Below, piece by piece: positions 1,014 to 57,311 of a DNA stretch of 64,000 nucleotides. Each line of letters begins with the position of its first letter. Positions within the stretch are counted from its first letter, which is position 1. The position numbers and the translations under genes are program-made. The notes beneath the pieces were generated by a model. It saw nothing but the letters and a program-made list of their open reading frames with translations. It ran no database searches and had not been told where the DNA came from. This DNA is from Chitinophagaceae bacterium (GTDB taxonomy: Bacteria > Bacteroidota > Bacteroidia > Chitinophagales > Chitinophagaceae), in the NCBI GenBank assembly GCA_947476485.1, contig CANJQU010000002.1, positions 2,149 to 66,148 of the forward strand, written 5' to 3'.

Positions 1014-3389
1014 ATGATTCCAAATCCAATTTCCGCCTCGCTTAAATTAGCTGATGGCCGCGAAATAACCATCGAAACGGGCAAGATGGCCCGCCAGGCC
1101 GATGGTTCAGTAGTTGTCCGTATGGGCGACTGTATGATACTCGCTACAGTAGTAGCTACAAACGAGCCCAAGCCAGGGCAGTCTTTCTTTCCATTGAGTG
1201 TTGATTACCAGGAAAAATTCGCTTCCGCAGGCCGCATTCCGGGCTCGTTCTTCAAGCGCGAAGCACGCCTTAATGATTACGAAATACTTACCTCACGTCT
1301 TATAGACCGTGCACTCCGTCCACTGTTCCCTGATGATTACCTGTGCGAAGTACAGGTGCTGGTTTCTCTTATTTCATCTGATGCAGAGGTTATGCCCGAC
1401 TCGCTTGCGTGTCTCGCAGCATCTGCAGCACTTGCTGTAAGCGACATTCCGATCCAGGAAGTGATCTCTGAAGTTCGCGTTTGCCGCATCAACGGTGAAT
1501 ACGTTGTAAACCCGGGCCGCACACAGATAAAGGATGCCGACATTAATATTATAGTCGCCTCTACCGACAAGAACATCATGATGGTAGAAGGTGAAGGCAA
1601 GGAGTTTGAGGAAGCAGGACTGATCAAGGCGATCGAAGTTGGCCACGAGGCCATCCGCGCACAGATCAAGCTGCAGCACGAACTGCGTGAGAAAGCCGGT
1701 GTGACCACAAAACGTGAATACACCAAGCCTTACACCAACCCTGCATTTGAAGCAACCATCGCAGAATTCGGCACTAAGCGTATCTACGATATTGCTAAGG
1801 GCGCTCTTGCCAAGCATGATCGCAGCGATGCTTTCAAAAAGGTAAAAGAAGACTTCAAGGCACAGTTTCAGAGTTCACAGGTAACAGAACCCAACTACCT
1901 GGAACCAGCAGACGCAGCCCTCATAGGCACTTACTTCCACGACCTGGAAAAGAAAGTGATCCGTGAAATGATGCTGAACGAAAAAGTACGCCTTGATGGC
2001 CGCGCACTGGAAACAGTTCGCCCGCTGACCATGGAAGTAAATCCGCTTCCTGCTCCGCACGGTTCTTCACTGTTTACCCGTGGCGAAACACAGTCGCTCA
2101 CTTCAGTAACCTTCGGTACATCGGAAGATGAGCTGCTGGCTGAGACTGCTGCAACATCTGATTATGTTTCTTTCTTCCTGCATTACAACTTCCCGCCATT
2201 CTCTACCGGCGAGGTGAAGATGATGCGCGGCCAGAGCCGTCGCGAAGTAGGCCATGGTAACCTGGCTATGCGTTCGCTGAAGCAAATGATGCCGGCTGAA
2301 TATCCTTACACAGTGCGTGTAGTATCTGATATCCTGGAGAGCAATGGTTCTTCATCGATGGCTACAGTGTGCGCAGGCTCACTGGCGCTTATGGATGCTG
2401 GTGTTCCGATACCAAAGCACGTAAGTGGTGTGGCAATGGGCCTTATAGCTGATCATGGCAAGTTTGCCGTGCTCACAGACATCCTTGGTGATGAAGATCA
2501 CCTGGGTGATATGGACTTTAAAGTAACGGGTACCCGTGATGGTATCTGCGGTATCCAGATGGATATCAAGTGTGATGGTCTGAGCATGGAGATCATGTTC
2601 CAGGCGCTGGAGCAGGCTAAACGCGGTCGTTTGCACATCCTTGATGCAATGTACACTTGTATCCCTGAAGCACGTGCAGAACTGAAACCACAGGCACCAC
2701 GCATCGAGCAGTTGAATATAGATCGTGAATTCATCGGTGCGGTAATCGGGCCAGGTGGTAAGATCATACAGGAAATACAAAGGGAGACCGGCGCCAAGAT
2801 CAACATCGAGGAAGTTGGCGACCAGGGTGTGATAAAGATATTCTCTGCAAACAAGGAGAGCATCGATAAGGCGCTCGGATGGATCCGCAGTATAGTAGCG
2901 ATACCTGAGATAGGCGCTACCTACGAAGGTACCGTGAAGAGCATCATGCCTTTCGGCGCATTTATTGAGTTCATGCCGGGCAAGCAAGGTTTGCTGCATA
3001 TCTCTGAAGTAAGCTGGAAGCGCCTTGATACACTTGATGGTGTGCTGAAAGAAGGCGACAAGGTGAAGATCCAGTTGGTAGGCACAGATCCTAAGACTGG
3101 TAAGCTGCGCCTGAGCCGCAAGGTACTTATGCCAAAACCAGAAGGCTACACAGAACCAGCCCCACGCGAAGGTGGCGACCGCGGAGACCGTGGTGATCGT
3201 GGCGACCGCCGTGGTGGTGGTGACCGTGATCGTAACCGTGGTGGTGGCGACCGCAACCGTGGTGGCAACGACCGTGGCCCACGCGAAGACCGTCCACGCC
3301 GCGAAAACAATAACGAAAACAAACCACAGGCAACCGAGCAGTCCGCTCCGCAGGTTAGCGAAAGCGACGATGCTGATATGGCACTGTAA
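1014..3389 (+). CDS. pnp: Polyribonucleotide nucleotidyltransferase (PNPase) with an R/G/D-rich C-terminal tail
   Basis: 791 aa with two RNase PH-like halves, KH ([10 protein letters not shown]) and S1 ([15 protein letters not shown]) signatures, and the conserved rpsO-pnp synteny. Confidence 0.97.
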
Positions 3390-43684: not shown

Positions 43685-45589
43685 TTATTTTATCCAAAAA
43701 AAGCTTAGTGTAAACAACATCACAATGCCAAGCACCATAATAAAAATGTAAAAACCAACCTGGCCACTCTGCAGCAATCGCAGGCGATCACCACCCCATT
43801 TCACGGTTTTTCCAACGCCGTTAACAATTCCGTCAATACCCTTCTTCTCAGCAAATTTGTCCAGTACATTCGACATTGCTTCCATCGGCCTTACTATAGT
43901 AGCGTCATAGATTTCGTCTACATACCATTTGTTAGCAAGTACCTTCCTAAAGCCAGTGTAGTTGCCATCAAACTGTTTAACAGCGAAGGCTTTGCGGGTA
44001 CCGATAAATATAATGAGCAGTCCAACGACTGTAGCGCCGAAGAGGGTCATCTCCTTCATTGCCGTCGATGCGTCCTCGTGAACAAACGCGGGTATTTTCG
44101 CACCGGCCAAAAATTCATTCAGGAAATCGTGTCCTCCAAACAAATGTGGCAATTGTACAAATCCACCTACCAGCGAGAAAATAGCCAGAACAATAAGCGG
44201 GAACGTAATAGCAGCAGGAGATTCGTGCAAATGATGTTCCTGGTCTTCAGTGCCCCTGAAGCCACCCATAAACACCAACATCAGTAAACGGAACATATAT
44301 ACTGCAGTCAGTATTGCGGCAAAAGCGGCCAGGTAGAAGTAAAGTTTGTTATGCTCATACACCGCCATTAGTATCTCGTCTTTAGATACAAAGCCGGAAG
44401 TGAATGGGAAACCTGAAATTGCCAATACACCGATCAAAAAGGTAAAATAAGTTATTGGAAGTTTTTTCCTCAGACCGCCCATGCGGGTAATATCCTGCTC
44501 ACCACCCATAGCATGTATCACAGAGCCGGCGCCGAGGAATAACAGCGCCTTAAAAAATGCATGGGTCATAACGTGGAAAACGCCGGTGGTATAAGCGCCA
44601 ACGCCCAAAGCCAAAAACATAAAACCAAGCTGGCTTACCGTGGAATATGCAAGTACCTTCTTAATGTCGTTCTGATACAATGCCATTGTTGCTGCAAGTA
44701 ATGCCGTGATCAAACCGACAGTAGCAACGAGGTTAAGCGCCATTGGAGCCAGATCGTATAGTGCATTGCTACGAACGATCATGTAAATGCCAGCAGTAAC
44801 CATGGTTGCTGCATGTATCAGCGCCGATACCGGAGTTGGACCTGCCATCGCATCAGGCAGCCAGGTATACAGCGGCACCTGGGCGCTCTTACCCATAGCG
44901 CCGATAAACAGGCAAATAGCTATCCAGTTATATGTACTGGTTGGCACTACCGACTGGGGGCTATGCAGTTTATCGAAAAATTCGTGATAAGAGAGGGTGT
45001 GGAAATTAAACAGTATTAGCAGCAGACCAACCAGGAAACCGAGGTCACCAATACGGTTCATGATAAATGCCTTCTTGCCTGCATTCGTATAATCCCTGTT
45101 CTTAAACCAGAAACCAATGAGCAGGTATGAGCAAAGACCAACACCTTCCCAACCAATGAACATGATCACATAATTAGCGCCAAGCACCAGCAGTAACATG
45201 AAGAACACGAACAGGTTCAGGTAAGCAAAGTACTTTACCATGCCCTCATCGTGGTGCATATAAGAGGTAGAGTAAACGTGTATCAGGAAACCAATGCCGG
45301 TAATAATGAGCAGGAATAGAGAAGAAAGCGCATCTACCTGGAAAGCAAATGGTATGTAGAAGTCCCCCGACCTGATAAAATCAAACAGAATTTTAGGCTC
45401 ATCATGATATGCCGGGCTTTTTACCTCAAGAAATATTCCTAATGAAATAACAAAGGAAATAAGTATTGCAACGCAGCCAATGATACCACCCAGGTTTTTA
45501 GGCATTCTTTTCCAAAACAAACCGTTGATCAAAAAACCGATCAGCGGAAACAATGGCACTAAGTAGACGAGTTGAGAAAGATTCCCCAT
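43685..45589 (-). CDS. nuoL: NADH-quinone oxidoreductase subunit L
   Basis: 634 aa, NuoL/ND5-like (LYTWLPDAMAGPTPVSALIHAATMVTAG). Confidence 0.95.
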   Translation of the reverse strand: MGNLSQLVYLVPLFPLIGFLINGLFWKRMPKNLGGIIGCVAILISFVISLGIFLEVKSPAYHDEPKILFDFIRSGDFYIPFAFQVDALSSLFLLIITGIGFLIHVYSTSYMHHDEGMVKYFAYLNLFVFFMLLLVLGANYVIMFIGWEGVGLCSYLLIGFWFKNRDYTNAGKKAFIMNRIGDLGFLVGLLLILFNFHTLSYHEFFDKLHSPQSVVPTSTYNWIAICLFIGAMGKSAQVPLYTWLPDAMAGPTPVSALIHAATMVTAGIYMIVRSNALYDLAPMALNLVATVGLITALLAATMALYQNDIKKVLAYSTVSQLGFMFLALGVGAYTTGVFHVMTHAFFKALLFLGAGSVIHAMGGEQDITRMGGLRKKLPITYFTFLIGVLAISGFPFTSGFVSKDEILMAVYEHNKLYFYLAAFAAILTAVYMFRLLMLVFMGGFRGTEDQEHHLHESPAAITFPLIVLAIFSLVGGFVQLPHLFGGHDFLNEFLAGAKIPAFVHEDASTAMKEMTLFGATVVGLLIIFIGTRKAFAVKQFDGNYTGFRKVLANKWYVDEIYDATIVRPMEAMSNVLDKFAEKKGIDGIVNGVGKTVKWGGDRLRLLQSGQVGFYIFIMVLGIVMLFTLSFFWIK

Positions 45590-45607
45590 TTTAAAATTAA
45601 AATTATT

Positions 45608-45913
45608 TTAGTGTTTCAGTCTGTTCAAAATATTAATATCCACTGAATGTACTTTACGATACATCATAACAATGATCGCCAGCCCCACCGCTACTTCAGC
45701 CGCCGCTACTACCATTATAAAAAATACAAACAACTGGGCATCCGCATCGCCATATATTTTTGAAAATGCTACCAATAATAAATTCACGGCATTGAGCATA
45801 AGCTCTATACACATGAAGATAATGATGGCATTACGGCGCATAAGCGCACCCATTATTCCGATGGAAAATAACAGGAGGCTTAAGAACAAATAATGTGTTG
45901 AATTTACCGGCAT
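45608..45913 (-). CDS. nuoK: NADH-quinone oxidoreductase subunit K
   Basis: 101 aa with 3 TM segments and the conserved Glu in [11 protein letters not shown]. Confidence 0.93.
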
Positions 45914-45939
45914 CTGATCAGTTATAGTAGTGATTAGTA

Positions 45940-46485
45940 TTATAAAAATTGTTTCATTTCCGATTCGTCTTCTTTAGAGACGGATTTCGTCTCTTCTTTC
46001 TTACCTATCACTACCGCACCGATCATTGCACTAAGAAAGAGAACACTGCTAATTTCAAAAGGCAGCACATACCTTGTAAACAATACCTTACCGAGATCGG
46101 CTATCAGGCCAATATCTGTAGAGGTCTTATCTATCGATTCTGTCTTCGCAGTTTTTATGGAAGCAAGTATCACAAGGAACAAAACACCACCCGAGATCAC
46201 GCCGGCCAGCTGCACCAACTGTCCTTTTTGCGGTTCCACATCTGCGTTCAGGTTCATTAACATGATAACGAAGAGAAACAATACCATTATTGCACCTGCG
46301 TATACGATAATATTCACAATAGCCAGGAACTGTGCATTCATTAATATATAATGACCCGATATTGCGAAAAAAGTGCCGATCAGGAACATCACACTGTTCA
46401 CCGGGTTACGGCTGAGGATAACCCCAAGCGCACAACCAACAGCGAACGCAGACAAAATCCAAAATAATATATCGTAGATGTCCAT
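45940..46485 (-). CDS. nuoJ: NADH-quinone oxidoreductase subunit J
   Basis: 181 aa, NuoJ-like ([10 protein letters not shown]...[17 protein letters not shown]). Confidence 0.92.
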
Positions 46486-46487
46486 AC

Positions 46488-46997
46488 TTATTTGCTATCC
46501 TGTTTTTTAGGGTTAGGAATGAGCAGGTCTTCTTTTTTATAAATGAAACTTGCGCGCGTATAATTTGCAGGCATTATCGTCTCAGTAAGGTAAATAGCGT
46601 CTTTAGGGCAGGCTTCCTCGCAGTAACCGCAGAATATGCAACGAAGCATATTTATCTCGTATTTAGCTGCGTACTTCTCTTCACGGTAAAGCATCTCTTC
46701 GCCGGCTTTACGCTCGGCGGCCTCCATAGTGATGGCCTCTGCGGGACAAGCGAGTGCACAAAGGCCACAGGCCGTGCAACGCTCAGCGCCATTCTCATCA
46801 CGGTTCAATATGTGCAGGCCACGAAATACCGGGCTGAACGGACGTTTCTCTTCCGGATAGCTGGTAGTAGCTTTCTTTTTAAATATATGCCCCAGCGTAA
46901 TGCCCAGGCCCTTTGCCAGTGAGGGCAGGTAAACACGCTCCCCGAAGGTCATCGGGCTACGGTCTATCTGTACTGCTCTGTTAGTTAGTTTTTGCAT
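46488..46997 (-). CDS. nuoI: NADH-quinone oxidoreductase subunit I
   Basis: Two 4Fe-4S motifs (CTACGLCALACP, CIFCGYCEEACP). Its start overlaps the end of the upstream HEPN gene by 17 nt. Confidence 0.93.
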   Translation of the reverse strand: MQKLTNRAVQIDRSPMTFGERVYLPSLAKGLGITLGHIFKKKATTSYPEEKRPFSPVFRGLHILNRDENGAERCTACGLCALACPAEAITMEAAERKAGEEMLYREEKYAAKYEINMLRCIFCGYCEEACPKDAIYLTETIMPANYTRASFIYKKEDLLIPNPKKQDSK

Positions 46998-47358
46998 TAT
47001 TTTCTTTTTCCAAGATCACAATAATTCGTTCAATTTTAGGCTTCAATGCTGGTATTTCCTGTTCAATGACTTCCCAAACCTTTCTCCAATCAACTCCCCG
47101 ATAAACGTGCGCGTAATAATTTCTTGCTGCTTTGATTAACTGCCACTGTATTTCTGTAAATCTATCCTTTAATTTATCATCGACTTGCGCAGAGTATTCT
47201 CCTAAAACCAACAGCTTCATCATCGAAGCATTTTTTACTAAATCATTTCTAAGAAACAACTCTTCGTCAAATCCTTTTGTAAAAGCAATAATAGCATCAA
47301 GCTGTTCAATCAAATAAGTTAATATCTCTATTTCCCTAATCAAATCCATATCAGACAT
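46981..47358 (-). CDS. HEPN/DUF86 family protein (HepT-like toxin), copy 1
   Basis: The RNYYAH motif (Rx4H) lies in ...IKAARNYYAHVYRGVDW. The start at 47358 overlaps the NTase stop by 8 nt (ATGTCTGA). Confidence 0.78.
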   Translation of the reverse strand: MSDMDLIREIEILTYLIEQLDAIIAFTKGFDEELFLRNDLVKNASMMKLLVLGEYSAQVDDKLKDRFTEIQWQLIKAARNYYAHVYRGVDWRKVWEVIEQEIPALKPKIERIIVILEKENNAKTN

Positions 47359-47644
47359 GGTAAATTTCCATTTTGTCTTTTTCAAAATTTCTTTTTACCC
47401 AGCTATGCATCAACTTGATTTCGATCAAATCAATTTTTTTGTCAAGAGCGTTTTCGAGACCTAAAGCCATTCCTGCATACTGCCACAGACTCATTCTTGT
47501 TTCTTCCATTTCAATGCCCAAATCTACATCGCTGTCTTCATTTGCATCTCCCCTTGCATACGATCCAAATAAATATACACTCTTCACCGGCTTATCTTTA
47601 AAATAGTCGGTAACTGTATCTTTTATCTGTTGCACACTAAGCAT
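47351..47644 (-). CDS. Minimal nucleotidyltransferase (MntA-like antitoxin), copy 1
   Basis: 97 aa. The LFGSYARGDANEDSDVDL motif (GSx10DxD) is present. Confidence 0.85.
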   Translation of the reverse strand: MLSVQQIKDTVTDYFKDKPVKSVYLFGSYARGDANEDSDVDLGIEMEETRMSLWQYAGMALGLENALDKKIDLIEIKLMHSWVKRNFEKDKMEIYHV

Positions 47645-47649
47645 TACTC

Positions 47650-48729
47650 CTACTTTTTAAATACCCACAATATCAGCACCCCGGTTATCAACATATTTAC
47701 CAAAGCCAAAGGTATCAGTGAGCGCCATCCCAGTTTCATTAGCTGATCATAGCGGAAGCGAGGAAGCGTCCACCTGACAAACATGAAAAACAGGATCATA
47801 CATACCACCTTGGTCAAAAGAACCATGACACAAATAAGAACAAACAAAATAGGGTACGCTGCGGTTGCTTGCTGCACACTGTCCATGAACGGGAAGTTAT
47901 AACCGCCAAAGAACAGGGTGACAATGATAGCGGAGCTGACAAACATGTTGATGTACTCTGCAAACAGGTAGAAACCTAGCTTCATAGAAGAATACTCCTG
48001 GTGATAACCCATGTTCAACTCACTCTCGCACTCCGGAAGATCGAAAGGTGCACGGTTAAGCTCTGCGAAAGCGCAGGTAAGGAAAATAACAAACCCAACA
48101 GGCTGCTTAAAAAAGTTCCATGAAAAATAACCATCGTTCCAGAAACCATGCTGCTGTGCAACGATCTCCCTAAGGCTAAGGGTACCGGTAAGCATTAAAA
48201 GTGCGATAAGGCTAATACCCATTGCCAGTTCATAAGAGATCGCTTGCGATGCCGCTCGAATACTACTTAGTAACGAGAATTTATTGTTTGACGCCCAGCC
48301 GCCCAGCATTACTCCGTACACACCAAGGCTCACAACGCCAAAAACAAATAAGATACCAATGCTAATATCAGCTACCTGGAAAGATATGACACGGCCACTA
48401 TCGGTAACGAGGTCAGGTCCCCAGGGTACAATGGCACTGGTCATCAACGCGGTGAGCATTGCGAGGCAAGGACCGAGAATGAAAATAAACCTTGTGGAAC
48501 GGTCTGGAATGATCTCCTCTTTGAAAAACAGTTTCAAACCGTCAGCAAGGGGTTGTAACAAACCAAACGGACCGGCACGGTTCGGACCGATACGGTCCTG
48601 CATTACCGCAGCTACCTTACGCTCACCCCAGGTGGCATACATAGCTATGCCTAACGACCCCATCAGTATTACCGAAATGAGGATGACTTTTTCTATAATA
48701 AGCGCTGTATCAATTTGAAGTAACAGCAT
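47650..48729 (-). CDS. nuoH: NADH-quinone oxidoreductase subunit H
   Basis: 359 aa, NuoH/ND1-like (GERKVAAVMQDRIGPNRAGPFGLLQPLADG). Confidence 0.95.
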   Translation of the reverse strand: MLLLQIDTALIIEKVILISVILMGSLGIAMYATWGERKVAAVMQDRIGPNRAGPFGLLQPLADGLKLFFKEEIIPDRSTRFIFILGPCLAMLTALMTSAIVPWGPDLVTDSGRVISFQVADISIGILFVFGVVSLGVYGVMLGGWASNNKFSLLSSIRAASQAISYELAMGISLIALLMLTGTLSLREIVAQQHGFWNDGYFSWNFFKQPVGFVIFLTCAFAELNRAPFDLPECESELNMGYHQEYSSMKLGFYLFAEYINMFVSSAIIVTLFFGGYNFPFMDSVQQATAAYPILFVLICVMVLLTKVVCMILFFMFVRWTLPRFRYDQLMKLGWRSLIPLALVNMLITGVLILWVFKK

Positions 48730-48747
48730 AGTGGCGCAAAAGTAGTT

Positions 48748-49113
48748 TTAGTTAGTTAAAAATTTATCGTCTGAATCAAGTTTTATTGTGCTTATCTCTT
48801 TTTTCAATTGTGACAGAAAGATCGTCGCAGCGTCCCAAATTATACCGAAGTCGATCCGGAAATATTCGTGTACCACAATGTTCCTCAAACCTATTATTTT
48901 ATGCCATTCTACGCCCGGATAGTTATTCCTCGTCTCATTTGTAATATTATTCGCCGCCTCTCCAATAATCTCTAACCATTTTACAACCGCGATCCGAAGG
49001 ACATGATTATCACAAAATGCCTCGTAATTGACCCCCATAATCGCCGTTTCAATTTCATTTATGTATTCAATAACATGGGCAATTCGTGCATCATCGCCGA
49101 TCTTATCTCTCAT
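48748..49113 (-). CDS. HEPN/DUF86 family protein (HepT-like toxin), copy 2
   Basis: GLRNIVVHEY is the RNx3H HEPN motif. The start at 49113 overlaps the NTase stop by 11 nt. Confidence 0.8.
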   Translation of the reverse strand: MRDKIGDDARIAHVIEYINEIETAIMGVNYEAFCDNHVLRIAVVKWLEIIGEAANNITNETRNNYPGVEWHKIIGLRNIVVHEYFRIDFGIIWDAATIFLSQLKKEISTIKLDSDDKFLTN

Positions 49114-49399
49114 AAATAACAAATTTATCTCTGTCGATAAACGGTTTTATATATTTACTTTCCCATCCGGCGCTCACAATATCCACCTTCTTATTTAGTT
49201 TTTCCGCAAGTTCACTACGCCAAAAAATATAGTCTGTTGCAATACCTGGTACATACTCAATATCAACTAATACATCTACGTCACTACTCTCATCTGCCTC
49301 TCCGCGAGCATAGGAACCGAATAACCATACTTTCTTAACCGGCTTTTTCAGAAAAAAATCGGAAATAACTTGTTTGATATGTTCAGTACTTAAAACCAT
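49103..49399 (-). CDS. Minimal nucleotidyltransferase (MntA-like antitoxin), copy 2
   Basis: 98 aa with LFGSYARGEADESSDVDV. It is paralogous to copy 1. Confidence 0.85.
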   Translation of the reverse strand: MVLSTEHIKQVISDFFLKKPVKKVWLFGSYARGEADESSDVDVLVDIEYVPGIATDYIFWRSELAEKLNKKVDIVSAGWESKYIKPFIDRDKFVIYER

Positions 49400-49409
49400 T
49401 TTTTTTCAA

Positions 49410-50507
49410 TCAGACTCCTTTACTACCAGAAGTCTTAAAATCATCTGAATGTGCGGGCCCCTCTATCTCTGATAAATGAACCTCGGGTCTGTTCACATCA
49501 CTTACATCATGAATGTCTAATAAGAATTTAGGCTGCTTGCCAATCACCTTATCTATCAACACCGGTGGTTTCATTGTCCCAACATAATGGCCTTGCGCGA
49601 TAACACTGCTGCGCTCGATCGCGGATGGGCCTTCTATTACCCAGTCTTTTGTTTCCTTTTTATGGAAGCGGCATTCGTTGCAGATAAATTCTTCCACTTC
49701 CCCCCACTTGTCCTTGCGGGCTGTAACTCGGAATACCTCTTCGCCACGCATCCACAGACGAACCTTACCCGTACAGGTTGGGCAGTCGCGATGTGCGTCC
49801 ACAGGCTTCGTAAACCATACGCGGTTCTTAAATCGGAATGTTTTATCGGTAAGCGCACCGACAGGGCATACATCTATCACATTGCCAATAAAGTCATGAT
49901 CCAGCGACTTGTTCAGCATGGTGCTGATCTGCGCATGGTCACCTCTCTCCAGTATGCCATGCTCACGCTTGTCTGTAAGCTGGTCGGCAGTATACACGCA
50001 ACGGAAACACATGATGCAACGCGTCATGTGCAGGGATATGTATGGACCTATATCTTCTTTCTCAAAAGTGCGACGCTTGAATTCGTAGCGTGTAGCCTCA
50101 TTACCATGCTCGTAACTCAGGTTCTGAAGATCACACTCACCTGCCTGGTCACAAACCGGGCAGTCCAGCGGATGATTGAGCAATAAGAATTCAACAACAC
50201 CTTTGCGCGCATCCAGTACTTTAGGTGAGGTGATATTTTTCACTTCCATGCCGTCCATTACCGTAGTACGGCAACTGGCCACCAGCTTGGGCATAGGGCG
50301 CGGGTCTTTCTCTGACCCTTTGCTTACCTCTACCAGGCAGGTGCGGCATTTGCCACCGCTGTCCTTCAGTTTGCTGTAGTAGCACATGGCCGGCGGTGTA
50401 ACCTCTCCACCTATCATACGCGCGGCATTCAAAATAGTAGTACCGGCTGGTACTTCTATAGTGATGTTATCAATGGTTACTTTAAATTTTGGTGTTTGGT
50501 CACTCAT
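49410..50507 (-). CDS. nuoG: NADH-quinone oxidoreductase subunit G (short Fe-S form)
   Basis: The N-terminal 2Fe-2S and 4Fe-4S cysteine clusters are present (CYYSKL..CRTCLVEV, HPLDCPVCDQAGEC, CIMCFRC). ATG at 50507 is preferred over the overlapping longer ORF. Confidence 0.9.
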   Translation of the reverse strand: MSDQTPKFKVTIDNITIEVPAGTTILNAARMIGGEVTPPAMCYYSKLKDSGGKCRTCLVEVSKGSEKDPRPMPKLVASCRTTVMDGMEVKNITSPKVLDARKGVVEFLLLNHPLDCPVCDQAGECDLQNLSYEHGNEATRYEFKRRTFEKEDIGPYISLHMTRCIMCFRCVYTADQLTDKREHGILERGDHAQISTMLNKSLDHDFIGNVIDVCPVGALTDKTFRFKNRVWFTKPVDAHRDCPTCTGKVRLWMRGEEVFRVTARKDKWGEVEEFICNECRFHKKETKDWVIEGPSAIERSSVIAQGHYVGTMKPPVLIDKVIGKQPKFLLDIHDVSDVNRPEVHLSEIEGPAHSDDFKTSGSKGV

Positions 50508-50520
50508 TGTTCTTTCTCTT

Positions 50521-50901
50521 TTATTTAACCTTACCCCTTGCAATATTCGGAGATTCAGGGTTTACGCTCAATTTGAAAAGCCGTGGAATAACTACCAAAT
50601 CCATATCTTCCATTGGTATCGCTCCTAACAGACATTCATCTCCTAAAACCATTGCACCAACAAAACATACCCGGTTTTCAAACTCTACCTTTATCGGTCC
50701 CACGTAAGGCATTAGCTTTGATGTGCCGTCAGCCAGCAGGGCTTCTTTCTGATACAATTCATTTACACCTAACTGATTGGCAACATGTTGAGTAATGCAT
50801 AAGAATGTAGACCCACTATCAACCAAACTTTTTACCTCAACAGGTGATTGTTCGGATTTTACCGGGTTCGATAATCTAATATTTGCGTAGACCAGTCCCA
50901 T
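50521..50901 (-). CDS. Retropepsin-like (clan AA) aspartic protease
   Basis: 126 aa. VDSGST is the active-site-type motif and GAIPMEDMDLVV the C-terminal motif, as in small bacterial and archaeal clan AA proteases. Confidence 0.75.
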   Translation of the reverse strand: MGLVYANIRLSNPVKSEQSPVEVKSLVDSGSTFLCITQHVANQLGVNELYQKEALLADGTSKLMPYVGPIKVEFENRVCFVGAMVLGDECLLGAIPMEDMDLVVIPRLFKLSVNPESPNIARGKVK

Positions 50902-50911
50902 ATATTTATTT

Positions 50912-52267
50912 TTACGCTGTTGTAGCTACGTGAATAGGATCGGCATAGTGTGCCAGTCCATAATTACGGCGCTGCGATTCATCGGGGTTCAAAACATGCC
51001 ACTCAAATTCATCACGGAAATGACGGATGGCAGCAGCTATAGGCCATGCAGCGGCATCGCCAAGTGGGCATATCGTATTGCCCTCTATCTTGCGCTGAAT
51101 ATCCCAAAGCAGATCTATATCGCTCATCTTACCTTTTCCGTATTCAATATTCTTCAGTATCTTATACATCCAGCCAGTGCCTTCGCGGCATGGGCTGCAC
51201 TGTCCGCAACTTTCATGATTGTAGAACCGGGCAAGTGTCATGGTATGGCGTACAACACACTGGTCTTCGTCCAACACGATAAAACCACCCGAGCCCATCA
51301 TACTGCCAGATACAAATCCGCCGTCAGAAAGGCTTTCGTAGTTCATGTAACGGGTTTCGCCTTTTGCCGTTTTAAGCAGCAGGTTAGCCGGTATTATTGG
51401 AACAGATGATCCTCCCGGAATACAAGCCTTCAGTTTCTTACCGTTTGGTATTCCACCGCAATACTCGTCACTGTAGATGAACTCTTCTACAGAAATGGTC
51501 ATGTCTATTTCGTAAACACCTTGATTCTTTACATTGCCACACACAGAGAGCAGCTTGGTACCGGTAGATTTACCCACACCGATCTTTGCATACTCATCAC
51601 CACCCATGTTTATGATCGGCACTACAGCCGCTATTGTCTCCACATTGTTCACCACAGTCGGGCGCATCCATACACCCTGTATCGCAGGGAATGGCGGCTT
51701 CATGCGGGGGTTACCACGCTTGCCTTCCAGTGATTCTATAAGCGCAGTCTCCTCACCACATATATAAGCGCCCGCACCGCGGTGCACATAAATCTCGCAA
51801 TCAAATCCTGAACCAAGTATATTCTTCCCGAGCCAGCCATTGTTTTTTGCCTCAACTATTGCCTGCTCCAGTATTTCCGGTATCCAGGCGTACTCGCCAC
51901 GTATATAAACATATGTTGCATTGCTGCCAAGCGCAAAACTGCTTATCAGTAATCCTTCTATAAACAGATGCGGATGAAACTCCATCAGGTAGCGGTCCTT
52001 GAACGTACCCGGCTCCGATTCGTCGGCATTACATACCAGGTGACGTGGCACACCTTCCGGCTTAGCCAGGAAGCTCCACTTCATACCTGTAGGAAAGCCC
52101 GCTCCACCACGGCCACGCAGGCCGCTTTTCTTCACCTCTTCCACTATATCAGCCGGAGACATCTTAAATGCCTTCTCAGCCGCACGGTAGCCACCATGCT
52201 TGCGGTAGGCATCGTAATAACGAATGCCTTCTACCTTATCGTGTTCTAATAATAGTTTTACGCCCAT
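50912..52267 (-). CDS. nuoF: NADH-quinone oxidoreductase subunit F
   Basis: 451 aa with the FMN/NADH site GRGGAGFPTG and the 4Fe-4S motif ESCGQCSPCREG. Confidence 0.96.
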   Translation of the reverse strand: MGVKLLLEHDKVEGIRYYDAYRKHGGYRAAEKAFKMSPADIVEEVKKSGLRGRGGAGFPTGMKWSFLAKPEGVPRHLVCNADESEPGTFKDRYLMEFHPHLFIEGLLISSFALGSNATYVYIRGEYAWIPEILEQAIVEAKNNGWLGKNILGSGFDCEIYVHRGAGAYICGEETALIESLEGKRGNPRMKPPFPAIQGVWMRPTVVNNVETIAAVVPIINMGGDEYAKIGVGKSTGTKLLSVCGNVKNQGVYEIDMTISVEEFIYSDEYCGGIPNGKKLKACIPGGSSVPIIPANLLLKTAKGETRYMNYESLSDGGFVSGSMMGSGGFIVLDEDQCVVRHTMTLARFYNHESCGQCSPCREGTGWMYKILKNIEYGKGKMSDIDLLWDIQRKIEGNTICPLGDAAAWPIAAAIRHFRDEFEWHVLNPDESQRRNYGLAHYADPIHVATTA

Positions 52268-52310: not shown

Positions 52311-52732
52311 TTAGATCTTCACACTCTGTCTCGCAAATAATTCCCAATGTTTGTTCTTCCACTGCCATACTTCCAATACTTTCAGTTTCAATTCCAGTGG
52401 CTTGCCCTCCATCAGTATTTTCACTTGCATTTCGGTTCTCACAATTCCTGTTTCACCATTAACCTGCAACATATCTGCACCGGTATTGATCTCCTGGTAA
52501 GTAAACTTCCCATTATACAGATCACCGATCACTTCTTTTTCGACTGTATCCACCCGTTCGAATGACCGTAAGTCAGCTCATCCAGAAGTAAATTTCTCAA
52601 TTTCACAGAGTCTTTATCAACCAGCGCTTTGTGAAATATTACTGCCGTTTCGCCCAGGTTCTTTTGTCCGGGTTTTTGTGCAAATACACCAACACTTACA
52701 AAGAGCAACAATATCGTTAATAAATATCTCAT
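52311..52732 (-). pseudogene. Frameshifted NTF2-like (SnoaL/DUF4440-type) secreted protein gene
   Basis: ORF 52529-52732 (signal peptide ...LTYGHSNGW) and ORF 52311-52553 (VDTVEKEVIGDLYNGKF...) read as one protein after a 1-nt shift near 52540-52553. Confidence 0.6.
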
Positions 52733-52750
52733 TTTGTTCCTATTCCTATT

Positions 52751-52996
52751 CTACCTCAAACCCAACACTAATTTTTCAAATTCCTCCATTTCCAGCTGTA
52801 AATCTTCCCTTACTATTTTCCTCAGTAAGCCTTTCGGCAGATCTTCGTTTTTATGAACAGGCACCGTTGTTACTCTGCCATCATCATGTTTCAGCCTGTG
52901 GTGCGAACCGTTAACCCGTACAAGCTTAAATCCCAGTTTTTCCAGAAGCTTCATCAGTTCCTTACCGGTTACTACGACCTGCTTATTACTCATCAC
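52751..52996 (-). CDS. hicA: HicA-family mRNA interferase toxin
   Basis: 81 aa. LEKLGFKLVRVNGSHHRLKHDDGRVTTVPVH is the HicA signature. There is a 4-nt overlap with hicB. Confidence 0.85.
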   Translation of the reverse strand: MMSNKQVVVTGKELMKLLEKLGFKLVRVNGSHHRLKHDDGRVTTVPVHKNEDLPKGLLRKIVREDLQLEMEEFEKLVLGLR

Positions 52997-53220
52997 ACGG
53001 CAATTTGCATTTCGATCTCTCTAAACCCAATAAAATGATTCAACGTGTCTGGTTTTTCTTCCAGTAAGCACATTTCAATGACCTCATGAATGTTCTTCAT
53101 CGCCTCATCTACTGTTTTTCCGTATGAATGGCACCCTTTGAAAACAGGGCACGACACGATATAGACCGCGTCTTCATCCTGTTCAATCAAAATCGGAAAA
53201 TGTACCTTTTGCGTTTCCAT
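52993..53220 (-). CDS. hicB: HicB-family antitoxin (short, UPF0150-like)
   Basis: 75 aa. FPILIEQDEDAVYIVSCPVFKGCHSYGKTVDEAMKNIHEVIE is present. Confidence 0.82.
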   Translation of the reverse strand: METQKVHFPILIEQDEDAVYIVSCPVFKGCHSYGKTVDEAMKNIHEVIEMCLLEEKPDTLNHFIGFREIEMQIAV

Positions 53221-53258
53221 TTCTCTTTTACTTTCAAATAGTCACCTTTTAGACGATC

Positions 53259-53663
53259 CTAGCTTTTATCAATGATCAAAATATAATCTTCCATCGGGTC
53301 GAAAAAGAAATCTGTCCAGCCTGCTTTGTGGCTTTTCATTTCATCTTCGTTCGGGAAACCTGTATGGTGAAGTATCACCTTCGTACCTGCTTCATCTTCT
53401 TTCAATAAATAATGAACTTCAGTTGGTTTTGTCTCTTCCGGCCAATCACTCGTTTTCCACGTGTATGCCAATTCATTTTTACCTGTCTTCAGCACTGTTC
53501 CCGTCACCCACCCATCAAACATCTCAAATCTGCCGCCCTCTTTATTTTCCAGCACTGCTTCTCCGCCACTCCACTTCCTTATCAGTACCGGGTCTGTGAG
53601 CAGTTGCATCACCCTTGCAGGCTTCCCGGATAATATAAATTCAAGCGCGAGGTCGTAAGCCAT
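53259..53663 (-). CDS. SRPBCC superfamily protein (AHSA1/START-like)
   Basis: 134 aa. LTDPVLIRKWSGGEAV...GGRFEMFDGWVTG...GTKVILHHTGFP is present. It starts 4 nt after the nuoE stop. Confidence 0.8.
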   Translation of the reverse strand: MAYDLALEFILSGKPARVMQLLTDPVLIRKWSGGEAVLENKEGGRFEMFDGWVTGTVLKTGKNELAYTWKTSDWPEETKPTEVHYLLKEDEAGTKVILHHTGFPNEDEMKSHKAGWTDFFFDPMEDYILIIDKS

Positions 53664-57280: not shown

Positions 57281-57311
57281 CAAAGTTACAGTTATGCGGT
57301 GAATTTGCAAA
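57281..57311 (-). promoter_or_regulatory. Candidate Bacteroidota promoter of the nuo operon
   Basis: On the minus strand there is a TTTG (57308-57311), 19 nt of spacer, then TAACTTTG (57281-57288), about 40 nt upstream of the nuoA ATG. Confidence 0.5.

Follow-up and report, generated by a model that had tools for sequence, protein, structure and literature searches.

MntA/HepT modules are among the toxin-antitoxin (TA) families of highest abundance, and their physiological role and regulation are poorly understood. Class I modules consist of neighbouring genes belonging to PF01909 and to PF01934 or PF08780, and are defined by the motif GSX10DXD in the minimal nucleotidyltransferase (MNT) protein and by RX4HXY in the HEPN protein (Yao et al. 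2020, PMC7641770). The tyrosine of the HepT RX4HXY motif is the acceptor of AMP, and in the prototype the chemistry carried out by MntA is ATP-dependent (PMC7641770). Here we describe two modules of this kind found in a stretch of 64,000 nucleotides (nt) of the Chitinophagaceae bacterium assembly GCA_947476485.1 (contig CANJQU010000002.1, positions 2,149 to 66,148), named the window throughout. The window includes a complete nuoA-N operon on the minus strand, and the two pairs flank nuoH in the same orientation, pair 2 in the nuoG-nuoH spacer and pair 1 in the nuoH-nuoI spacer. We give a probability of about 0.7 to the reading that both modules are selfish or addictive promoter-less passengers of the essential nuo operon, and we read them as not being part of complex I. 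The features of the locus are the following.

57281-57311, minus strand: Bacteroidota-type promoter motif 5' of nuoA (pattern search)
49410-50507, minus strand: nuoG (short form), with PF22117, PF10588 and PF13510 matches, its stop 10 nt 5' of mntA-2
49103-49399, minus strand: mntA-2, minimal nucleotidyltransferase antitoxin, 98 amino acids (aa) (PF01909, E 7e-13)
48748-49113, minus strand: hepT-2, predicted HEPN RNase toxin, 121 aa (PF01934, E 4.8e-23)
48730-48765, minus strand: nuoH leader TTTTTAACTAACTAAAACTACTTTTGCGCCACT, containing the hepT-2 stop and stops in all three frames, conserved in the genus
47650-48729, minus strand: nuoH, complex I membrane subunit (PF00146, E 2e-115)
47351-47644, minus strand: mntA-1, minimal nucleotidyltransferase antitoxin, 97 aa (PF01909, E 2.8e-16)
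46981-47358, minus strand: hepT-1, predicted HEPN RNase toxin, 125 aa from a conserved ATG (PF01934, E 3.9e-17)
46998-47013, minus strand: A-rich nuoI initiation leader TTGGAAAAAGAAAATA, also coding for HepT-1 residues LEKEN, kept in module-less genomes
46981-46997, minus strand: overlap of the hepT-1 3' end and the nuoI 5' end, 17 nt in different frames (direct sequence reading)
46488-46997, minus strand: nuoI, 2x[4Fe-4S] subunit, start MQKLTNRAVQIDRSP (TIGR01971, 136.3 bits against a cut-off of 113)

The genes are tightly packed, with spacers of 10 nt between nuoG and mntA-2, 18 nt between hepT-2 and nuoH, and 5 nt between nuoH and mntA-1. In both pairs the end of mntA runs past the start of hepT, the shared stretch being 8 nt long (ATGTCTGA) in pair 1 and 11 nt long in pair 2. 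The gene between the two modules is the sole nuoH copy of a 4.58-Mb, 99%-complete genome, where a single match was found. This genome includes about four MNT/HEPN pairs, and since two of them lie inside a 17-kb operon that represents about 0.4% of the genome, their placement is beyond what chance would produce. The initial annotation of this DNA, made from the letters and open reading frames (ORFs), had placed two MntA/HepT modules around nuoH, and both the sequence and the Pfam matches confirm its coordinates and overlaps.

Both pairs consist of adjacent, overlapping PF01909 (MNT) and PF01934 (HEPN) genes, in agreement with the definition of Class I. The motif GSX10DXD is present in MntA-1 (GS-YARGDANEDS-DVD) and MntA-2 (GS-YARGEADESS-DVD) and is conserved in all modules found at the same sites in other genomes. 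Both hepT genes match the HepT-like (former DUF86) profile over its full length; the match of HepT-1 spans profile positions 2 to 120 of 120, and the domain is complete by residue 112 of the 125. RX4HXY is found as RNYYAHVY in HepT-1 and as RNIVVHEY in HepT-2, including the acceptor tyrosine. The motif is kept at 15 of the 17 species loci, and HepT-1 residues R79, N80, H84 and Y86 are invariant in the HepT alignment, so that the HEPN catalytic motif proposed at the outset is retained when the proteins are aligned. A comparison with the curated NCBIfam models gave scores below the 60-bit cut-offs for all four proteins: 55.5 bits for MntA-1 and 47.7 bits for MntA-2 with NF047752 (MntA_antitoxin), and 18.9 and 34.6 bits for the HepT proteins with NF047751 (HepT_toxin). 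By these scores the four proteins belong to the Pfam families as divergent members, and they are no equivalogs of those in the curated set. MntA-1 matches the solved structure of the Shewanella MntA (5YEP_A, E 5e-6), and HepT-2 shows a weak match to the Shewanella HepT (5YEP_B) over the helix that carries RX4HXY. No significant sequence match to HepT-1 was found in PDB.

To place the modules among their relatives we used 24 congeneric genomes and 16 from other families, with 20-kb operon stretches from 20 of these, as well as 18 loci recovered when 185,579 species genomes were scanned and 20 order-level loci, for about 60 related loci overall. The scan of species genomes used short exact peptide patterns and is biased to close relatives. 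A quick tree with support values from the Shimodaira-Hasegawa-like approximate likelihood ratio test (SH-aLRT) was built from concatenated MntA and HepT sequences of 47 pairs. Pair 1 and pair 2 are only 39% identical in MntA and 23% identical in HepT, and no repeat was detected between them at the DNA level. The MntA copies group by insertion site. The 22 modules from the nuoH-nuoI site form one clade (SH-aLRT 95), which includes the tandem second copies of two metagenome-assembled genomes (MAGs) as well as a Hanamia locus and another MAG whose NuoH proteins are only 63-64% identical to that of the window. The five modules from the nuoG-nuoH site, mntA-2/hepT-2 included, form another (SH-aLRT 100). 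This second clade groups (SH-aLRT 88) with four modules of other genera that lie outside nuo operons, and the nuoH-nuoI lineage is sister to that assemblage, which argues for separate acquisitions and not for a local duplication. A recent tandem duplication across nuoH was therefore rejected on three counts, the low identities, the lack of a DNA repeat, and the non-nuo modules that stand between the two lineages in the tree. The initial annotation had already taken the moderate similarity as a sign that no recent duplication had occurred, as alignment and tree both indicate. Its description of paralogous modules bracketing nuoH is correct in that two genuine related modules are present; the single event that it implied is not what the tree suggests.

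In the scan, the nuoH-nuoI-type HepT profile picked up 18 loci, and 17 of them are located exactly between nuoH and nuoI. A MntA/HepT pair between nuoJ and nuoK of a genome from another Chitinophagales family (L071, genome G063) is unrelated to both lineages, and the two site lineages together with this third module point to at least three independent entries into nuo operons. The insertion at nuoH-nuoI was thought from the start to be old, and this is supported by the span of its clade across genera and by the saturation of synonymous divergence (dS) within it. Deep allelic types are seen in the clade, where the N-terminal half of MntA and the catalytic helix of HepT are conserved and the interface regions are divergent. 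Two uncultured Bacteroidetes MAGs (L066 and L067) carry tandem MntA/HepT modules, two each, at nuoH-nuoI. Their nuoG-nuoH spacer is occupied as well, in L067 by a complete pair and in L066 by at least an mntA, so that three cassettes surround one gene.

The TAA stop of hepT-1 (46981-46983) is located 17 nt inside nuoI when the latter starts at the ATG at 46995-46997. Several observations support this start. NuoI aligns from residue 1 in 22 or more orthologues of the genus and in those of at least four other families (tblastn), and its first 15 residues, M(Q/E)(K/A)LTN(R/K)...R.P, are conserved across families. In the genus group, codons 2-15 show minor-allele fractions of 0.15, 0.04 and 0.26 at codon positions 1, 2 and 3 respectively. 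Residue 16 is leucine in two species (L048 and L053), and consequently the downstream methionine cannot be the general start of nuoI. An in-frame TGA is found 21 nt 5' of the ATG. The alternative start at the downstream methionine (46952) was ruled out by the alignment of orthologues, the leucine at residue 16 and the variation at third positions. As nuoI starts at the upstream methionine, the overlap with hepT-1 is real, and both the location of the hepT-1 stop within the nuoI coding region and the conserved N-terminal sequence starting at that methionine, as first annotated, were corroborated, the former by direct reading of the sequence and the latter by all orthologues checked.

The hepT-1 gene has no stop of its own and crosses the native leader (GGAAAAAGAAAATA-ATG) to the first out-of-frame TAA. 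Its last 10 or so codons are thus made up of the nuoI leader followed by the opening 17 nt of nuoI, read in another frame; beyond the Pfam domain the protein ends in ILEKENNAKTN, a sequence that corresponds to the A-rich leader and nuoI codons 1-6 in the shifted frame. An overlap of 17-20 nt is found in 12 of the 17 species loci and also in G379. It is 20 nt, with hepT one codon longer, where synonymous changes in nuoI abolish the TAA. In the remaining species loci hepT stops 3-65 nt 5' of nuoI or is broken. Per-site variation is low at nuoI positions -12 to -1, and the same A-rich leader precedes nuoI in relatives that have lost the module, which indicates that initiation of nuoI is independent of hepT. 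The idea that one module is fused into the nuoI translation start was for this reason an overstatement, as hepT-1 merely runs through a native A-rich leader. Translational coupling of hepT-1 to nuoI is plausible from their spacing.

A 10-mer, AACTAACTAA, occurs as only two exact copies in the window, both on the minus strand (46981-46990 and 48748-48757), and each copy ends a hepT ORF. Its count with one mismatch allowed is at the level expected by chance, and one of the copies is native nuoI coding sequence. In the nuoH leader, which is present in all genus members regardless of the cargo at the site, TAACTAACTAA supplies stops in all three frames. The presence of AACTAACTAA at both hepT stops is probably a coincidence added to the AT-richness of the leaders. 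As an insertion target it was discarded on the basis of the one-mismatch count, the native nuoI copy and the frequency of out-of-frame stops in AT-rich nuo leaders.

The distribution of the modules among relatives is patchy. Full modules at nuoH-nuoI were found in the window, in G010, G016, G017, G023 and G379, and in several further species; G020 has at least mntA at this site, where its contig ends. In a concatenated Nuo tree, these species are dispersed among three clades. The nearest relatives of the window (G006, G004, G001 and G018) have nuoH-nuoI spacers of only 28-36 nt that end in TTGGAAAAAGAAAATA-ATG, and this 16-nt TTGGAAAAAGAAAATA also belongs to the 3' end of hepT-1. Other species that appear empty have scars of 147-218 nt including the hepT 3' end, the first 80 nt or so of mntA, or both. 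Overall, the empty sites hold remnants of 16-218 nt that derive from the 3' end of hepT or from the 5' end of mntA, and a clean spacer of 6-10 nt is found only in the two deepest-branching species. At nuoG-nuoH, intact pairs are present in the window and G018; mntA accompanied by a frameshifted or truncated hepT in G004, G024 and apparently G006; an orphan mntA in G022 and G008; and remnants in others. HicAB takes the place of MntA/HepT at this site in G020, G015 and G008.

Decay of the toxin gene is a recurrent finding. A frameshifted, truncated or deleted hepT lies beside a kept mntA in L031, L038, L039 and L042, and the hepT genes at the nuoH-nuoI site of Flavipsychrobacter stenotrophus RB1R16 (L060) and of the Hanamia sp. 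MAG (L064) have premature stops. In the latter gene, at about 3001-3318, the premature stop takes the exact place of the RX4HXY tyrosine codon, the protein ending in RNYYVHV, and the similarity continues 3' of the stop. The module is lost or broken in most species, usually in the toxin first, as would be expected of a real but dispensable TA pair. Among intact copies the ratio of nonsynonymous to synonymous divergence (dN/dS) is 0.03-0.37 for the computable pairs, with dS saturated and often beyond estimation; examples are hepT-2 (0.07 against the L034 orthologue) and mntA-1 (0.08 against L040). By these ratios, intact modules are under purifying selection.

A search of the region 45500-51000 detected no sigma-70-like promoter or terminator signal above that of shuffled sequences, with the limit that consensus scans may miss internal promoters. 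Along the operon strand, within the operon and next to it, the Bacteroidota-type motif TTTG-N-TAnnTTTG has one full match (TTTG-N23-TAACTTTG), located about 40 nt 5' of nuoA. Given the tight spacing of 5-18 nt, the shared orientation and the lack of a detectable promoter or terminator of their own, the most economical interpretation is that the modules are transcribed within the nuo mRNA, which would most likely start at the nuoA-upstream promoter.

The modules are not the only guests of these operons. The spacer length varies among genus members at almost every nuo junction, and co-oriented small genes of selfish type are found in nearly all spacers of the genus operons (L031-L050). In relatives, these include a Uma2 endonuclease gene between nuoC and nuoD, genes for 23S_rRNA_IVP (PF05635) four-helix bundles at nuoA-B, nuoD-E and nuoL-M, HicAB at nuoE-F and nuoG-H, a PDDEXK_3 (GxxExxY-type) gene at nuoF-G, and DUF559 at nuoJ-K. 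The nuoF-G cargo also includes an AAA_15/AAA_21 ATPase gene with that of a 178-aa partner without Pfam match. In a genome of another family (L028, genome G027) a gene for a 133-aa four-helix bundle of the intervening-sequence type lies between nuoH and nuoI. The reading of the modules as passengers agrees with this habit of the clade, in which nearly every nuo spacer hosts a small gene of TA or nuclease type. In the window itself, the other spacers contain the following.

50521-50901, minus strand: clan AA aspartic protease, 126 aa, in nuoF-nuoG at 10 and 13 nt from its neighbours (TIGR03698, 65.5 bits, above the cut-off)
52311-53663, minus strand: SRPBCC-like gene, HicB/HicA pair (PF15919, E 4e-11; PF07927, E 2e-21) and DUF4440-like gene broken into two frames, all in nuoE-nuoF

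Three relatives have the protease gene in this same nuoF-G position, and one has it at nuoE-F. At nuoE-nuoF, nearly all genus members share the SRPBCC and DUF4440-like genes, and a few have HicAB. A different kind of feature is a hairpin-like G/C motif, GGGGAAGCCCCTTyAGGGGTTTGGGGT, that occurs within 0-16 nt of four nuo start codons in the window: it abuts nuoD (55433-) and nuoF (52268-), overlaps the listed nuoN start, and lies 16 nt before nuoM. Two of the MNT/HEPN pairs of this genome are outside the nuo operon. One (contig C15, 40363-41017, minus strand) starts immediately behind the miaB-like gene's stop and is followed by a gene for a sigma-54-dependent regulator, the same promoter-less wedge layout in another setting. 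The fourth is at the start of a contig, 177 nt 5' of a co-directional serA-like gene.

On these grounds we propose that each module entered the single complex I operon of a bacterium of the Flavipsychrobacter/Nemorincola group (Chitinophagales) separately and long ago. Both would be transcribed with the nuo genes, and the 8- and 11-nt overlaps would couple translation within each pair in such a way that MntA is made ahead of HepT. By analogy to the prototype from Shewanella, oligo-AMPylation of the RX4HXY tyrosine of HepT by MntA would consume ATP, and the RNase would thus be silenced. Meanwhile nuoI retains its ancestral start and leader, hepT-1 simply ending at the first out-of-frame TAA. 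Intact modules are kept by purifying selection and repeatedly lost over the genus, usually with the toxin going first, and such losses leave mntA as an orphan or a short 3' stub, which goes on acting as the nuoI leader. What the passengers may gain is free transcription and, between essential genes, shelter from large deletions.

Several facts weigh against this proposal. The module tree conflicts with the species tree, in that the sister species L037 and L040 are set apart, the former grouping with L044 and the latter with the window, and none of the closest relatives of the window has the nuoH-nuoI module. Strictly vertical descent and loss consequently do not tell the whole story, and exchange of alleles within the genus, besides loss, likely contributed to the pattern of the tree. 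Import of the nuoH-nuoI module by recombination from a G010-like donor was considered and set aside when sliding-window identity along the flanking nuoH and nuoI of the window revealed no imported tract, although a short one could have escaped detection. Furthermore, all four proteins fall under the equivalog cut-offs, and their toxicity and AMPylation are predicted from motifs. Finally, the near confinement of one HepT lineage to nuoH-nuoI and its purifying selection across genera could indicate co-option.

Co-option would mean that the MntA/HepT lineage embedded in nuo, above all that of nuoH-nuoI, has been domesticated as a regulator linked to complex I. It could be an energy checkpoint, in which MntA needs ATP to hold HepT in the AMPylated state and a failure of ATP supply or respiration frees the RNase, or translation of hepT over the nuoI start could adjust the synthesis of NuoI. 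The monophyly of the lineage across genera, its near exclusivity to one junction, the selection on its members, the overlap conserved in 12 of the 17 species and the ATP dependence of the prototype MntA (PMC7641770) are all in agreement with such a role. We consider it unlikely nonetheless, as in most of the genus the module is gone or inactivated and the nuo operon is intact, the nuoI leader and start are identical with and without it, the unrelated HicAB fills the nuoG-nuoH slot in other species, and the toxin decays first in the manner of a dispensable pair. Equally unlikely, in our estimation, is the bolder version in which the nuoH-nuoI lineage is a built-in respiratory checkpoint, proportional to complex I mRNA, with an ATP-dependent antitoxin that reports the energy state and a toxin ORF that modulates NuoI translation, complex I operons being a preferred and possibly selected home of promoter-less TA cassettes in several phyla.

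That the modules are recent mobile cassettes homing repeatedly into nuo spacers, perhaps through a short target such as AACTAACTAA, and not old residents, is somewhat less probable again. The module-free nearest relatives, the incongruence of module and nuo trees and the two exact 10-mers at hepT stops would be explained in this way. However, no recombinase genes and no flanking direct or inverted repeats were found around the modules, and the nuoH and nuoI flanks have no detected imported tract. Modules at the same site are deeply diverged with dS saturated, and the empty sites hold remnants of hepT and mntA that are deletion scars and not virgin targets. The 10-mer is at chance level when one mismatch is allowed, and one of its copies consists of nuoI codons conserved in module-less species. 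The least probable of the explanations considered is that the modules are anti-phage abortive-infection systems for which the nuo spacers are tolerated parking places and the position is incidental. Defence contexts are a recurrent setting of HEPN RNases and MNT partners, MntA-1 has weak NCBIfam matches to the Hailong HalB nucleotidyltransferase and a weak PDB match to Cmr1-MntA, an AAA_15/AAA_21 ATPase pair is among the other nuo cargo, and turnover is fast with diverse alleles. On the other hand, the modules lie among core respiratory genes and in no defence island, and the fixation of the lineage to a single site contrasts with the usual shuffling of defence islands. Passengers of the operon thus remain our preferred interpretation of the two modules.

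If this interpretation is correct, there are module lineages that live only as promoter-less inserts in an essential respiratory operon, one of them tied to a single junction across genera. An essential gene has its leader and start in common with the last codons of the toxin gene of that lineage. Such lineages offer a natural system for the study of how TA cassettes persist without regulation of their own, and they raise the questions of whether essential operons serve as deletion-proof refuges and what effect overlapping translation has on the host gene. Cultured carriers are available, Nemorincola caseinilytica JCM 32105 and Flavipsychrobacter stenotrophus RB1R16, and these questions are therefore testable. 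The former carries its nuoH-nuoI module intact and with the 17-nt overlap, and the latter has, besides the broken hepT at nuoH-nuoI, a nuoG-nuoH module that can be aligned along its entire length. Literature searches returned no description of TA modules within nuo operons and nothing relevant on hitch-hikers of the intervening-sequence type in Bacteroidota; the novelty lies in the setting of known proteins, which is apparently undescribed.

Unidentified reading frames (URFs) are interspersed in the nqo and nuo clusters of Paracoccus denitrificans and Rhodobacter capsulatus, and these resemble the present case in being extra, co-oriented small ORFs between canonical complex I genes of one operon. 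To our knowledge, they are not TA modules, and we know of no report of presence/absence turnover, site-specific lineages or gene overlap among them. The 23S rRNA intervening-sequence proteins (PF05635) are comparable as small, selfish-looking genes within essential and highly transcribed units; they differ in belonging to another protein family and in having no toxin-antitoxin logic. The prototype is the Shewanella oneidensis pair SO_3166/SO_3165 (PMC7641770; PDB 5YEP), with which both modules share the overlapping PF01909 gene directly 5' of the PF01934 gene, the GSX10DXD and RX4HXY motifs with the acceptor tyrosine, and the small size of the proteins. In contrast to the prototype, the MntA proteins of the window are minimal, 97-98 aa as compared to 139 aa, the hepT-1 stop is within nuoI, and the modules sit co-directionally in a complex I operon with no evident promoter of their own. 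The proteins can therefore be considered ordinary Class I MntA/HepT (type VII TA) by their predicted features, and it is their context that appears unusual.

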